Source: Escherichia coli (GTDB lineage: Bacteria > Pseudomonadota > Gammaproteobacteria > Enterobacterales > Enterobacteriaceae). Taken from it: a stretch of 9,306 bases of DNA. A model generated the notes under the pieces. The model was not told the origin of the DNA. It searched no databases and worked only from the letters and a program-made list of their open reading frames with translations. The translations under genes and the position numbers were made by a program. Each line of letters opens with the position of its first letter. Position 1 is the first letter of the stretch. Where the stretch lies: assembly GCF_003334255.1 (NCBI RefSeq), contig NZ_QOWU01000089.1; one strand, 5' to 3'. Positions 5,141 to 9,306 of the stretch are shown in pieces.

Positions 5141-6135
5141 CCGCGATAAAACACCCGGTGCTGCTGTGGGGGCTTCCCGTTGCAGCACTTATTATTATTT
5201 TCTGGCTGAGTCTGTTTTGCTACTCGGCCATTCCTGTTTCCGGAGCAGATGCAACCCGCGCCCTGCTGCCTGGACACACGCCAACGCTACCAGAAGCGCT
5301 GGTGCAAAACCTTCGTTTGCCACGAAGCCTGGTCGCCGTTCTGATCGGCGCAAGCCTGGCGCTCGCGGGCACGCTGCTGCAAACCCTGACCCACAACCCA
5401 ATGGCCTCTCCTTCACTGCTCGGCATTAACAGCGGCGCGGCACTGGCTATGGCGCTTACCAGCGCGCTGAGTCCGACGCCGATTGCAGGCTATTCTCTGT
5501 CGTTCATCGCGGCATGCGGGGGCGGCGTGAGCTGGCTGCTGGTCATGACCGCAGGAGGCGGATTTCGTCATACCCATGACAGAAACAAACTGATCCTCGC
5601 GGGTATCGCGCTGTCGGCCTTTTGTATGGGCCTTACCCGCATCACCCTGCTGCTGGCCGAAGATCATGCTTACGGCATCTTTTACTGGCTGGCAGGCGGA
5701 GTGTCCCACGCCCGCTGGCAGGATGTCTGGCAGCTCTTGCCGGTGGTGGTCACTGCAGTCCCTGTCGTGTTGCTGCTGGCGAATCAACTGAACCTGCTCA
5801 ACCTCAGCGACAGCACCGCCCATACGCTGGGAGTGAACCTGACGAGGCTACGTTTGGTCATCAATATGTTAGTGCTGCTTCTGGTTGGTGCGTGCGTCAG
5901 CGTGGCAGGTCCGGTGGCGTTTATCGGTCTGCTGGTGCCACATCTGGCGCGCTTCTGGGCAGGCTTCGATCAGCGCAACGTACTGCCAGTGAGCATGCTG
6001 CTGGGGGCCACGCTGATGCTGCTGGCAGATGTACTCGCACGCGCGCTGGCCTTCCCCGGAGATCTGCCCGCAGGCGCAGTGCTGGCGCTGATTGGCAGCC
6101 CTTGCTTTGTCTGGCTTGTGAGGAGGCGAGGATGA
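5137..6135 (+). CDS. fecC: Ferric citrate ABC transporter permease FecC (FecCD/BtuC family), 332 aa
   Basis: ORF of 332 aa, highly hydrophobic with multiple predicted transmembrane helices and the FecCD-family signature region (GxxLAxxGxLLQ...NPxAxPxLLG). ATGA overlap with the fecB stop at 5137-5140 and with the fecD start at 6132-6135. Confidence 0.97.
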   Translation: MTAIKHPVLLWGLPVAALIIIFWLSLFCYSAIPVSGADATRALLPGHTPTLPEALVQNLRLPRSLVAVLIGASLALAGTLLQTLTHNPMASPSLLGINSGAALAMALTSALSPTPIAGYSLSFIAACGGGVSWLLVMTAGGGFRHTHDRNKLILAGIALSAFCMGLTRITLLLAEDHAYGIFYWLAGGVSHARWQDVWQLLPVVVTAVPVVLLLANQLNLLNLSDSTAHTLGVNLTRLRLVINMLVLLLVGACVSVAGPVAFIGLLVPHLARFWAGFDQRNVLPVSMLLGATLMLLADVLARALAFPGDLPAGAVLALIGSPCFVWLVRRRG

Positions 6136-7088: not shown

Positions 7089-7856
7089 ATGACTTTACGA
7101 ACTGAAAATCTGACGGTCAGTTACGGGACAGACAAGGTACTTAACGACGTTTCACTCTCACTGCCAACGGGGAAGATCACCGCCCTGATCGGTCCTAACG
7201 GTTGCGGGAAATCGACGCTGTTAAACTGTTTTTCGCGGCTTTTAATGCCGCAGTCTGGCACCGTATTTCTCGGCGATAATCCCATAAATATGCTCTCATC
7301 GCGCCAGTTGGCCCGCAGGCTTTCGCTGCTGCCTCAGCACCATTTAACGCCAGAGGGGATCACAGTCCAGGAGCTGGTTTCGTATGGTCGTAATCCCTGG
7401 CTGTCACTCTGGGGGCGTCTCTCCGCTGAAGACAATGCACGAGTTAATGTCGCCATGAACCAGACCCGGATCAATCATCTTGCCGTTCGTCGGTTAACCG
7501 AGCTTTCCGGCGGTCAGCGCCAGCGCGCATTTCTGGCGATGGTCCTGGCCCAGAATACGCCCGTTGTATTACTTGATGAGCCAACCACCTATCTTGATAT
7601 CAATCACCAGGTGGACCTGATGCGGTTGATGGGCGAACTCCGGACTCAGGGGAAAACGGTGGTCGCTGTGCTGCACGACCTTAATCAGGCTAGCCGGTAC
7701 TGCGATCAACTGGTGGTAATGGCAAACGGACATATTATGGCGCAAGGCACACCAGAAGAGGTGATGACCCCAGGATTGCTGAGAACAGTATTCAGCGTGG
7801 AAGCGGAAATACACCCCGAGCCGGTATCTGGCAGGCCGATGTGCCTAATGAGGTAG
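7089..7856 (+). CDS. fecE: Ferric citrate ABC transporter ATP-binding protein FecE, 255 aa
   Basis: Walker A GPNGCGKST, ABC signature LSGGQRQR, Walker B VVLLDEPT and H-loop VLHDLN are all present. The start ATG immediately follows the fecD TAA (TAAATG at 7086-7091). Confidence 0.97.
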   Translation: MTLRTENLTVSYGTDKVLNDVSLSLPTGKITALIGPNGCGKSTLLNCFSRLLMPQSGTVFLGDNPINMLSSRQLARRLSLLPQHHLTPEGITVQELVSYGRNPWLSLWGRLSAEDNARVNVAMNQTRINHLAVRRLTELSGGQRQRAFLAMVLAQNTPVVLLDEPTTYLDINHQVDLMRLMGELRTQGKTVVAVLHDLNQASRYCDQLVVMANGHIMAQGTPEEVMTPGLLRTVFSVEAEIHPEPVSGRPMCLMR

Positions 7857-7918
7857 ATTGCACAGGCCGTAAGAACCAAACCACGACTGAATGAAACTGG
7901 ACTGGCGCCAGCAAGCCT

Positions 7919-7943
7919 GTTCAGACTGGGGCTGAACTTTTCC
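7919..7943 (+). terminator. Weak candidate rho-independent terminator downstream of fecE
   Basis: GTTCAG (7919-7924), loop ACTGGGG, CTGAAC (7932-7937), then TTTTCC (7938-7943), about 60 nt after the fecE stop. The stem is short and not GC-rich, so this is tentative. Confidence 0.3.
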
Positions 7944-8194
7944 GGACTCTGAAAGATTACCAATACTCATCGTCCATCCGCTTGCTTTAGGCTGACAGGT
8001 TCATAATCAACGCAAACCAGAGCTGTACAGGCTTGGGCGCGGCTTTCAAACCAGTCGTGATCACGGCAATCAATTTTGAACTCTGCTTAACGGACATTTC
8101 TGTATAACCCTTACGGCAACGAAAAACGCGAAGTTAAAATTTTAGAAACCCAAAAACGTGACATGACTAAGTTTAGATTTCAGGGGGGGAGATC

Positions 8195-8220
8195 AAAAAA
8201 TTTCGCTCTGTGCCAGAGCG
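8195..8220 (-). terminator. Candidate minus-strand hairpin with trailing T-run
   Basis: CGCTCTG-TGC-CAGAGCG is a perfect 7-bp inverted repeat (8204-8220). Read on the minus strand it is followed by AAA then TTTTTT (complement of 8195-8203). It could terminate a minus-strand transcript entering from the right. Unverified. Confidence 0.25.
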
Positions 8221-8413
8221 GACATTCACGGAGCTGGTTCATTACCAATGAGGTTGGGCTTTTGAGGATAAATCAATGATCAGACGCCAACGTAAATCAA
8301 AAGCAACCCTGGAACGGAATTGCTAATCCAGTTTCTGACCATCGATTTTTCTAAAAAGTGTGCGTTTGCTACTACTTAGGTAGGTGCAGCTTTCTTAATC
8401 ACCGGCAGCCACG

Positions 8414-8745
8414 TTATACAGGCCAGTTGATGGATCGATTGTTATCAATGATATCTTTATGAGTCGGTGTCTCACCCAGCTTACCGAAGCTGGCATAAAG
8501 TGAAGGCAGACGGGCCCGTCCTTCTCCCTTTTTCGCCAGAGGGAAAGCGCGAAGCATGGTGGCAGCCTCCCAGTCACAACAATAGGATGGTGTGCACGGC
8601 TGCTGACGCCATGATTCAGCGATAGAGCCGGAAAATACGGGGTCAAAGCCGGTATCATTAACCAGAGTCATCGTGACCTGTACTGCGGCTGGATGATCTC
8701 CTGCTACTGCAACTGCTAGGCGACCGCGGCTCCCTTCAGGTAGTC
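8414..8745 (-). pseudogene. N-terminally truncated ORF of unknown function abutting the IS3-family element end (about 110 codons of native sequence; frame stays open into the IS terminal repeat)
   Basis: Minus-strand frame ...LPEGSRGRLAVAVAGDHPAAVQVTMTLVNDTGFDPVFSGSIAESWRQQPCTPSYCCDWEAATMLRAFPLAKKGEGRARLPSLYASFGKLGETPTHKDIIDNNRSINWPV-stop (stop at complement 8414-8416). The track ORF 8414-8827 begins with a Met inside the IS end, so the native 5' part appears to have been replaced by the insertion. I do not recognise a family. Confidence 0.35.
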
Positions 8746-9232
<487 letters not shown>

Positions 9233-9239
9233 TAGAGTA

Positions 9240-9275
9240 AGAGGCAGGGCGTAGTCGGACTATTTCCCTGCCTCT
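9240..9275. repeat. Perfect 10-bp inverted repeat (AGAGGCAGGG ... CCCTGCCTCT) with a 16-nt spacer, just beyond the point where IS3-family homology ends
   Basis: Read directly: 9240-9249 AGAGGCAGGG and 9266-9275 CCCTGCCTCT are exact reverse complements, separated by CGTAGTCGGACTATTT. Confidence 0.7.
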
Positions 9276-9306
9276 CCTCCCCGAACCGGACGTGCACCTT
9301 TCAGCG

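Follow-up and report, generated by a model that had tools for sequence, protein, structure and literature searches.

The fecE-yjhV spacer of Escherichia coli as probable junction DNA of a mobile island, with an ISKpn21-like relic and the 3' flank of a truncated oxidoreductase gene

The fecE-yjhV spacer and its distribution

The question raised by this locus is what the DNA that separates fecE from yjhV in Escherichia coli consists of and whether it contains a gene of its own. The window analyzed here, meaning the whole stretch of 9,306 nucleotides, contains the E. coli ferric citrate locus fecIRABCDE on its plus strand and is the reverse complement of K-12 MG1655 around 4.51 Mb. The last gene of the operon and the spacer behind it are located as follows.

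7089-7856, plus strand: fecE, the last gene of fecABCDE, taken from the open reading frame (ORF) list and named fecE in the annotations of K-12 and strain SK1144
7857-8413 (K-12 4510134-4510689): the spacer, a gap between the convergent genes fecE and yjhV inside the fec/KpLE2 mobile island

No annotation of the spacer was present in RefSeq K-12, in the inspected PGAP-annotated genomes, or in any of the listed matching records. An earlier note, made from the letters of the sequence, had suggested that it could hold a small RNA, a small protein, or the decayed remains of whatever gene was present before an insertion sequence (IS) arrived. No earlier resolution of the spacer into its sources was found in searchable records or papers. 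The literature on yjhV concerned a promoter in the insM-yjhV spacer or lists of virulence genes, with none on the fecE-yjhV spacer, and among the papers listed, nothing relevant was found on a small RNA at the fecE intergenic region.

The general description given in the earlier note was borne out. The spacer is AT richer than the operon, with a G+C content of 0.456 versus 0.58 in fecI-fecE, and the ORF list for both strands contained no ORF of at least 60 amino acids inside 7857-8413. Two ORFs touch only the edges of the spacer.

7706-7963, minus strand: ORF with a TTG start at 7963, running antisense into fecE
8395-8658, minus strand: ORF overlapping the right edge

The distribution of the spacer was examined by blastn. 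Of the 5,426 complete E. coli genomes, 2,736 carried the 557-bp sequence, typically as a single copy and nearly always with an identity of at least 99%. As all of the E. coli copies are nearly identical, conservation within the species is uninformative in either direction. The whole spacer was also present in 13 plasmid records. More than 1,400 other plasmids matched just query bases 142 to 220, in sequences annotated as "ISNCY-like element ISKpn21 family transposase." A search of the E. coli genomes in a more distant mode added only matches of these same 79 bases to ISKpn21 transposase genes, and a single ISKpn21-like match was obtained among phages. Positions 8100-8232 were confined, within E. 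coli, to fec-carrying genomes. On the question of conservation outside fec-carrying strains, which the earlier note had raised, the ISKpn21-like stretch recurs in plasmids, and the rest of the spacer was not seen elsewhere in the E. coli genomes.

Sources of the spacer segments

The spacer was divided into segments A to E, which are listed here with the features that adjoin them on the right.

7857-7874, plus strand: segment A, the tail of the transferable fec module
7875-7997, no strand assigned: segment B, orphan DNA of ~120 bp
7998-8077, minus strand: segment C, a 24-codon relic of an ISNCY-family (ISKpn21-like) transposase, corresponding to residues 148 to 171 of 467, around the DHDWFE...CTALV motif
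8078-8229, minus strand: segment D, an AT-rich remnant with ISKpn21-type end-repeat motifs, which also contains a 7-bp hairpin and a G tract
8230-8413, minus strand: segment E, the native 3' flank (184 bp) of an NADP oxidoreductase gene that survives as its C-terminal stump, yjhV
8414-8743, minus strand: the yjhV pseudogene (K-12 annotation), the C-terminal ~109 codons of the NADP oxidoreductase (NAD_binding_2, F420_oxidored)
8746-9231, minus strand: a remnant of IS911 (IS3 family; K-12 mobile-element annotation), through which the oxidoreductase gene lost its 5' part

To define the left end of the spacer, the locus was compared with its counterparts in other genera. Enterobacter soli (L005) and Citrobacter portucalensis (L006) carry fec loci that remain homologous as far as position 7872 and then diverge completely; beyond this point there is unrelated DNA with different neighboring genes in each genus. 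The fec loci of Silvania and Photorhabdus diverged at or before the fecE stop codon. By these alignments, the right-hand boundary of the transferable fec module is located ~16 to 18 bp past the fecE stop codon, and the remaining spacer lies outside fec. The analysis of the spacer thereby marks the exact right edge of the module.

At the right end, the DNA directly beyond 8413 does not yet belong to an IS. It is the yjhV pseudogene, and the IS911 remnant begins only at ~8746, with IS3/IS911 matches starting at ~8743 to 8753. The yjhV ORF gave no Pfam or NCBIfam match above threshold, and its homologues include proteins of 181 to 210 amino acids (P0017 and P0034) with PF03446 and PF03807. The pseudogene ends at the natural C terminus of the family (...NRSINWPV, compared to ...NRALNWPV in Raoultella).

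Collinearity with Raoultella identified the DNA beyond this stop codon. Positions 8745 down to 8230 were collinear with two Raoultella loci that are 98.8% identical to each other, namely, a genome locus (L086, positions 5416 to 5934; 85% identity) and a 694-kb contig (L093; 86% identity), and both alignments ended at 8230. The full-length oxidoreductase gene is intact in L093 and encodes ~248 amino acids. Homology thus runs from the coding region through the stop codon and into the flank of an intact orthologue. Past the 8230 breakpoint, the Raoultella sequence leads into the promoter region of a gene for an HxlR-family regulator. In more distant orthologues (L085, L089, and L090), the coding region was shared and the flank was not, and pattern scans of metagenomes for relatives of the flank yielded only one further locus of the Raoultella type.

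Relative to Raoultella, the identity was 91% in the coding part and 76 to 77% in the flank. Differences in the coding part numbered 8, 1, and 19 at codon positions 1, 2, and 3, respectively, and the divergence at 4-fold degenerate sites was 20%. With a divergence of 23% against these 20%, the flank overall appears to evolve at about the neutral rate. The right-hand 184 bp of the spacer is IS-truncated gene debris of the same kind as the yjhV/IS911 remnant of KpLE2 in K-12; unlike that remnant, the flank and the ISNCY relic beside it are unannotated in RefSeq K-12 and in the PGAP genomes. The relationship to Raoultella suggests that the DNA beside fec came from a Klebsiella/Raoultella-like chromosome.

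Segment C was recognized by four independent searches, which agreed in assigning it to an ISNCY transposase relic. At the DNA level, blastn detected 80% identity over 80 nt to the ISKpn21 transposase genes of the >1,400 plasmids. At the protein level, residues 148 to 171 of the ISKpn21 transposase (467 amino acids; locus L003) matched the segment at 17 of 24 positions (tblastn, E = 2e-6), and the same residues were matched by the NCBIfam model NF033594 (ISNCY family transposase) with E = 1.7e-4, or E = 0.0024 in the six-frame scan. The fourth match was to PHROG 151 (transposase; E = 0.0097). Six-frame scanning of the spacer against NCBIfam and PHROGs detected no protein family besides the transposase.

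Apart from residues 148 to 171, no part of the transposase was detectable, and stop codons are present on both sides in the frame of the relic. An intact DDE transposase gene of ~467 codons, as is characteristic of the ISNCY family, is therefore not what remains here: the relic keeps ~5% of the protein. In comparison with ISKpn21 itself, an element of Klebsiella and of enterobacterial plasmids, the relic has also lost the outer inverted-repeat tips, the accompanying DUF6904 gene, and ~2 kb of sequence from an element 2.3 kb long. The relic is incapable of transposition.

Segment D resembles the ends of such elements. The ends of ISKpn21 consist of 33-bp terminal inverted repeats and subterminal repeats of the form GGCTCAATT..(A/G)ATGTCCG, and the ends of a second ISNCY element, from plasmid pT28R-1, are built in the same way. 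In both elements, the octamer AATGTCCG forms the core of the terminal repeats and of the subterminal ones. It occurs exactly twice in the 9,306-bp window, where 0.34 occurrences would be expected by chance, and both copies lie in segment D on the minus strand (8219-8226 and 8091-8098), upstream of the transposase relic and pointing the same way. Longer matches take in both copies. On the minus strand, 8100 down to 8088 (GAAATGTCCGTTA) is identical over all 13 nt to an inner stretch of the ISKpn21 left inverted repeat (IRL). The minus-strand sequence 8226 down to 8218 (AATGTCCGC) is an exact 9-mer corresponding to positions 26 to 34 of the right inverted repeat (IRR), and a hand alignment extended this match to 8208, with 16 of 19 positions shared and one gap over IRR positions 26 to 44 (AATGTCCGCTCTGGCACA versus AATGTCCGCCTGTGGCTCA).

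The order of these matches is collinear with the IS, in that positions 26 to 44 correspond to 8226-8208 and positions ~548 to 627 to 8076-7998, so that the end motif precedes the transposase fragment. At least ~370 nt are missing between the two. Of the GGCTCAATT..AATGTCCG ends, the core octamer was thus found twice in one orientation; the tips lack their outer ~25 nt, and an opposite end was not found. Since the outer ~25 nt of an ISKpn21-type end are lacking at the 8230 junction, the relic does not represent a clean insertion. Segment D probably represents what is left of the transposase-proximal end of the insertion sequence that gave rise to segment C. We infer from these short matches that C and D derive from one gutted ISKpn21-like element, a conclusion that is weaker than the assignment of segment C alone.

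Positions 8230-8262 were considered as the missing IS tip on the basis of a resemblance to TTGGTAATG...GCTC. This candidate was ruled out by 22 ungapped identities with Raoultella over the 33 positions, which is far above chance.

Segment B matched nothing beyond this locus among the E. coli genomes, plasmids, and phages and had no protein-family match in six frames (NCBIfam and PHROGs). A protein search in which the frame of the relic was extended across it returned only spurious E. coli ORFs. An imperfect long-range inverted repeat connects segment B (left arm, 7905-7924) with the inside of the transposase relic (right arm, 8021-8040), and the fold of 7905-8040 is a long hairpin with a z score of -2.4. 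The repeat may be a small inverted duplication or may have arisen by chance. For segment D, blastn searches of the E. coli genomes, plasmids, and phages and six-frame searches of NCBIfam and PHROGs returned nothing beyond the ISNCY relic. The origin of segment B and of most of segment D, for which no relative was found, is assumed.

Putative order of events in the island

Taken together, the sources of the segments favor a reading, to which we give a probability of about 0.8, in which the spacer is nonfunctional junction DNA in a mobile genomic island, built by successive rearrangements and with no gene of its own. The suggestion of decayed remains in the earlier note was correct to the extent that the spacer contains an ISNCY/ISKpn21-like transposase relic with IS-end-like motifs and the native 3' flank of a truncated oxidoreductase gene. 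The history is more involved than that of a single gene preceding an IS: two or more distinct insertion sequences come together here with the edge of the fec module.

The order of the rearrangements, as we infer it, would run from right to left. IS911 would have removed the 5' part of an NADP oxidoreductase gene from a Klebsiella/Raoultella-like chromosome, with the yjhV stump and its 184-bp flank (8413 down to 8230) left behind. An ISKpn21-like ISNCY element may then have been situated in that flank and later been gutted by deletions, leaving as its residue (8229 down to 7998) the end-repeat motifs, the AT-rich stretch with the hairpin, and the 24-codon transposase piece. Next to this would come the ~120 bp of untraceable DNA (7997 down to 7875), followed by the junction with the 3' boundary of the fec module, 18 bp past the fecE stop codon. 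The whole block would then have spread with fec, almost unchanged, through about half of the sequenced E. coli strains.

The biological weight of this result is small, and its use is mainly that of an annotation refinement for a stretch present in about half of sequenced E. coli, including K-12. The fecE-yjhV gap can be labeled as an ISNCY (ISKpn21-like) relic and the 3' flank of the yjhV pseudogene, and one further insertion-sequence event is added to the history of the KpLE2/fec island. The result also serves as a caution that the small ORFs and the hairpin of the spacer should not be taken for genes.

Hairpin, small ORFs, and G tract

The small features that had been noticed in the spacer were examined individually. 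Their positions are as follows.

8204-8220 (K-12 ~4510327-4510343), minus strand: perfect hairpin of 7 bp, of which 5 are G-C, around a 3-nt loop; AAATTTTTTG follows on the minus strand
7987-8097, minus strand: 36-codon ORF overlying the transposase relic in a different frame
8276-8326, plus strand: 16-codon ORF (MIRRQRKSKATLERNC) inside segment E
8163-8279, plus strand: 38-codon ORF that spans the G run
8183-8189, plus strand: G tract, G7 here and G6 in K-12

The hairpin was present as described (CGCTCTG/TGC/CAGAGCG). Read on the minus strand from 8220 to 8204 and on through AAATTTTTTG, it passed a terminator scan, and the features of an intrinsic terminator were found on the minus strand only; on the plus strand, there is no T run 3' of the hairpin. 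The stem was retained in the fold of the spacer, in which individual hairpins were unexceptional. A perfect hairpin of at least 7 bp with a loop of 3 to 8 nt occurred in 13% of shuffled spacers, and the hairpin alone is not beyond chance. It overlaps the first AATGTCCG end motif, and the Raoultella homology stops just short of it. As a minus-strand signal, it looks like a candidate intrinsic terminator for transcripts arriving from the yjhV/IS911 side. In its 7-bp stem with 5 G-C pairs, its 3-nt loop, the following AAATTTTTTG, and its position between the convergent genes fecE and yjhV, it resembles the Rho-independent terminators found between convergent genes. Unlike these, it has a short stem and three A residues between the stem and the T run, and it is located 194 nt past the yjhV stop codon, in IS-derived sequence, and is not kept in the Raoultella locus. 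The sole likely activity of the spacer would be passive, in that this hairpin and its U tract may halt transcription arriving from yjhV/IS911 before it continues antisense into fecE. The remaining spacer would then presumably form the untranslated 3' trailer of the fecABCDE mRNA.

On the plus strand, the candidates at 8054 (a stem of 5 bp) and at 8361 (a stem rich in G-T pairs) were weak. A GTTCAG/CTGAAC stem followed by TTTT just past fecE was considered as the plus-strand terminator of fecABCDE and was rejected, being unsupported by folding.

These observations bear on whether the spacer has a function in the fec operon and is kept as its transcription terminator or as an mRNA stability element. 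The spacer always accompanies fecE in E. coli, and terminator-like sites are enriched in the convergent zone (5 in 7600-8900 versus 1.1 expected), an enrichment that is itself expected between convergent genes and at IS ends. The fec operons of Enterobacter, Citrobacter, Silvania, and Photorhabdus, however, share nothing beyond the first 16 to 18 nt past the stop codon, and the spacer is therefore not an ancestral part of fec. Given also the weakness of the plus-strand candidates and the fact that the first 94 nt past fecE fold no better than shuffled sequences (z = +0.5 and +1.4), a maintained role in the operon appears extremely unlikely. A regulatory RNA, either a small RNA (sRNA) derived from the 3' untranslated region (UTR) of fecABCDE or a minus-strand RNA ending at 8220-8204, which would act on fec or other targets, is very improbable. 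As there is no convincing plus-strand terminator, a long 3' region past fecE is probably transcribed upon fec induction, and this, together with the minus-strand hairpin and its T run, the long hairpin of 7905-8040, and the minus-strand fold of the whole spacer (z = -1.95, compared to -0.94 on the plus strand), speaks for such an RNA. A long untranslated stretch past the last gene of an inducible operon is shared with the 3'-UTR-derived sRNAs CpxQ, SdhX, and UhpU. Unlike these, the spacer has no suitable plus-strand terminator, conserved seed region, or family match, and its sequence is mosaic debris of recent origin and not a 3' UTR under conservation. The Rfam scan (Rfam 15, E values up to 10) that the earlier note had proposed gave only chance-level matches inside the spacer, to eukaryotic microRNA and snoRNA models at 17 to 22 bits against thresholds of 50 to 107, and the sequence belongs to no known RNA family in that collection. 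A regulatory RNA would consist of IS debris and orphan DNA restricted to the fec locus; its terminator is not conserved in Raoultella and has a hairpin of a kind that arises in 13% of shuffles, and all copies are at least 99% identical and hence without compensatory variation. In segment E, RNAalifold with three sequences from two lineages found invariant stem arms and essentially no informative covariation. A promoter scan found no sigma-70-like promoter in the spacer, and no conservation beyond the neutral rate was observed, so that the small RNA of the earlier note found no backing. Supplement files of a K-12 3'-end mapping study, in which fec was not induced, contained no mention of fecE or yjhV.

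The proposal of a small protein rested on two ORFs, and neither gained support. The 36-codon ORF exists with the translation reported and with AAGGG 10 nt upstream. It has no relatives outside nearly identical E. coli sequences, and its frame offset from the relic (8097 - 8077 = 20) is not a multiple of 3, which marks it as a chance ORF. The 16-codon ORF was also confirmed together with its GAGG motif (8264-8267), which is located 8 nt before the ATG. Retention of the reading frame together with an excess of synonymous changes, as expected of a small protein, was found for none of the 36-, 16-, and 38-codon ORFs. That the 16-codon ORF is a real gene for a small protein or leader peptide from the original oxidoreductase/HxlR-regulator locus, still translatable in E. 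coli, is very improbable in our estimate. Its start codon, stop codon, and length and a GAGGA Shine-Dalgarno motif upstream are kept in the Raoultella contig L093 (MIRRQRKPKASLERIC), its region is 90% identical compared to 77% for the whole flank, and the block formed by the motif, the ORF, and the sequence downstream (8263-8358) shows somewhat higher conservation with Raoultella (87%) than does the remainder of the flank. The differences from L093, however, comprise 3 nonsynonymous and 2 synonymous changes, as would be expected without selection on a 16-codon peptide, and K-12 itself carries the change L12M. Against 20% at neutral sites, the ORF has diverged by 10% and the core 8263-8358 by 13%, a deficit of ~1.6 to 1.8 standard deviations (SD) in regions that were picked after the data had been seen; for the ORF, the 5 differences in 51 nt compared to ~10 expected (~1.8 SD) are not significant, and the comparison involves two lineages only. 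Any original promoter of the ORF is gone, as the native upstream DNA was replaced by the IS relic 46 nt before the ATG (breakpoint 8230), and the spacer contains no promoter-like site in its place. The supplement of one K-12 small-ORF ribosome-profiling study contains no entry at 4,510,1xx to 4,510,6xx. Neither this study nor the 3'-end mapping study used fec-inducing conditions, and the negative expression results are weak for that reason. The ~95-bp core 8263-8358 is made up of the Shine-Dalgarno motif, the basic ORF of 16 codons, and, downstream, a conserved block able to pair with the region of the ORF start. It is similarly very doubtful that it forms a functional small gene or a cis-regulatory RNA element from an ancestral HxlR-regulated oxidoreductase locus that was carried along with the fec island. 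An apparent frameshift of the ORF in Raoultella L086 was considered and dropped as an observation, since the ORF is intact in L093 and the L086 assembly splits both the oxidoreductase gene and a LysR gene; the extra G in L086 is probably an assembly error.

Junction DNA without a gene of its own, the reading preferred here, is also consistent with the behavior of the G tract. This G7 run was confirmed and is the sole run of G or C of at least 7 in the window. A 133-base query (8100-8232) was compared with 30 evenly spaced genomes, 29 of which spanned the query from end to end: 17 copies were one base shorter than the query, 11 had the full length, and 1 was one base longer, with the missing base mapped to the G run for K-12 only. 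Length variation of this type fits slippage in unconstrained DNA. Changes in the G run also shift the frame of the 38-codon plus-strand ORF between strains.

Right-hand edge of the fec module and repeats in the spacer

Comparison with the fec loci of Enterobacter soli (L005) and Citrobacter portucalensis (L006) located a sharp right-hand edge of the fec module ∼16 to 18 bp past the fecE stop codon (7857-7874). Beyond this edge, the DNA was unrelated among the three species.

DNA following the fec edge
Enterobacter soli (L005): type VI secretion-like genes
Citrobacter portucalensis (L006): TetR-like regulator and MFS transporter
E. coli: IS debris

Two repeat features were detected in the E. 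coli spacer between fecE and yjhV.

Repeat features of the spacer
8183-8189: G run, G7 in the source strain and G6 in K-12
7905-7924 / 8021-8040: GCGCCAGCAAGCCTGTTCAG / AGCTGTACAGGCTTGGGCGC, the two arms of a long-range, imperfect inverted repeat

The length of the G-run region was examined in 29 full-length matches evenly spaced across E. coli genomes, with the indel being placed in the G run itself for K-12 only. Eleven of these matches equalled the source strain in length, a further 17 were shorter by one base, and a single match was longer by one base. The inverted repeat closes a 136-nt hairpin (fold z = -2.4), and its right arm sits within the ISNCY transposase relic; this repeat could reflect either a small duplication in inverted orientation or chance.

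yjhV, its Raoultella orthologue and the 3' flank

Comparison of yjhV (8414-8743) with two Raoultella oxidoreductase loci, L086 and L093, indicated that the E. coli pseudogene represents ∼109 codons from the C-terminal end of a ∼248-aa NADP oxidoreductase, the intact orthologue of which adjoins divergent HxlR-family regulator genes in Raoultella. Differences between yjhV and the Raoultella gene numbered 8, 1 and 19 at codon positions 1, 2 and 3, respectively, a pattern showing, on the evidence of codon positions, that most of this divergence arose under purifying selection. Such selection suggests in turn that the truncation of yjhV in E. coli was recent or that most of the changes occurred on the Raoultella side.

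A conserved segment was present beside the 16-codon ORF (8276-8326).

Conserved segment of the yjhV flank
8331-8358: near-invariant block CTGACCATCGATTTTTCTAAAAAG, 25 to 28 nt

This block was nearly unchanged between E. coli and Raoultella, whereas the surrounding flank was ∼77% identical in this comparison of two lineages. Pairing is possible between the block and the region in which the 16-codon ORF starts (ATGATCAGA against TCTGACCAT).

The Raoultella terrigena assembly GCA_901420665.1 (L086) seems to contain single-base indel errors. At this locus, the oxidoreductase is broken into 181 and 47 aa, a LysR gene is in two pieces, and one additional G is present within the 16-codon ORF. In L093, which is 98.8% identical to L086, this ORF lacks the additional G and the oxidoreductase is a single ORF. 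L086 by itself is unsafe ground for frameshift arguments.

A candidate group II intron at the window end

An Rfam scan detected a match to RF00029 that is cut by the window end; its score was 37.9 bits, where the threshold is 40 (E = 2e-5).

Candidate intron feature
9232-9306, minus strand: candidate group II intron 3' end, domains V/VI (Rfam RF00029)

This segment looks like the 3' end of such an intron. As sequence comparison indicated that homology to the window stops at 9231 in both K-12 and SK1144, and no intron match was found in SK1144 at the position corresponding to 9232 onward, the source strain seems to have a group II intron as an insertion within the IS911 remnant that lies downstream of yjhV.
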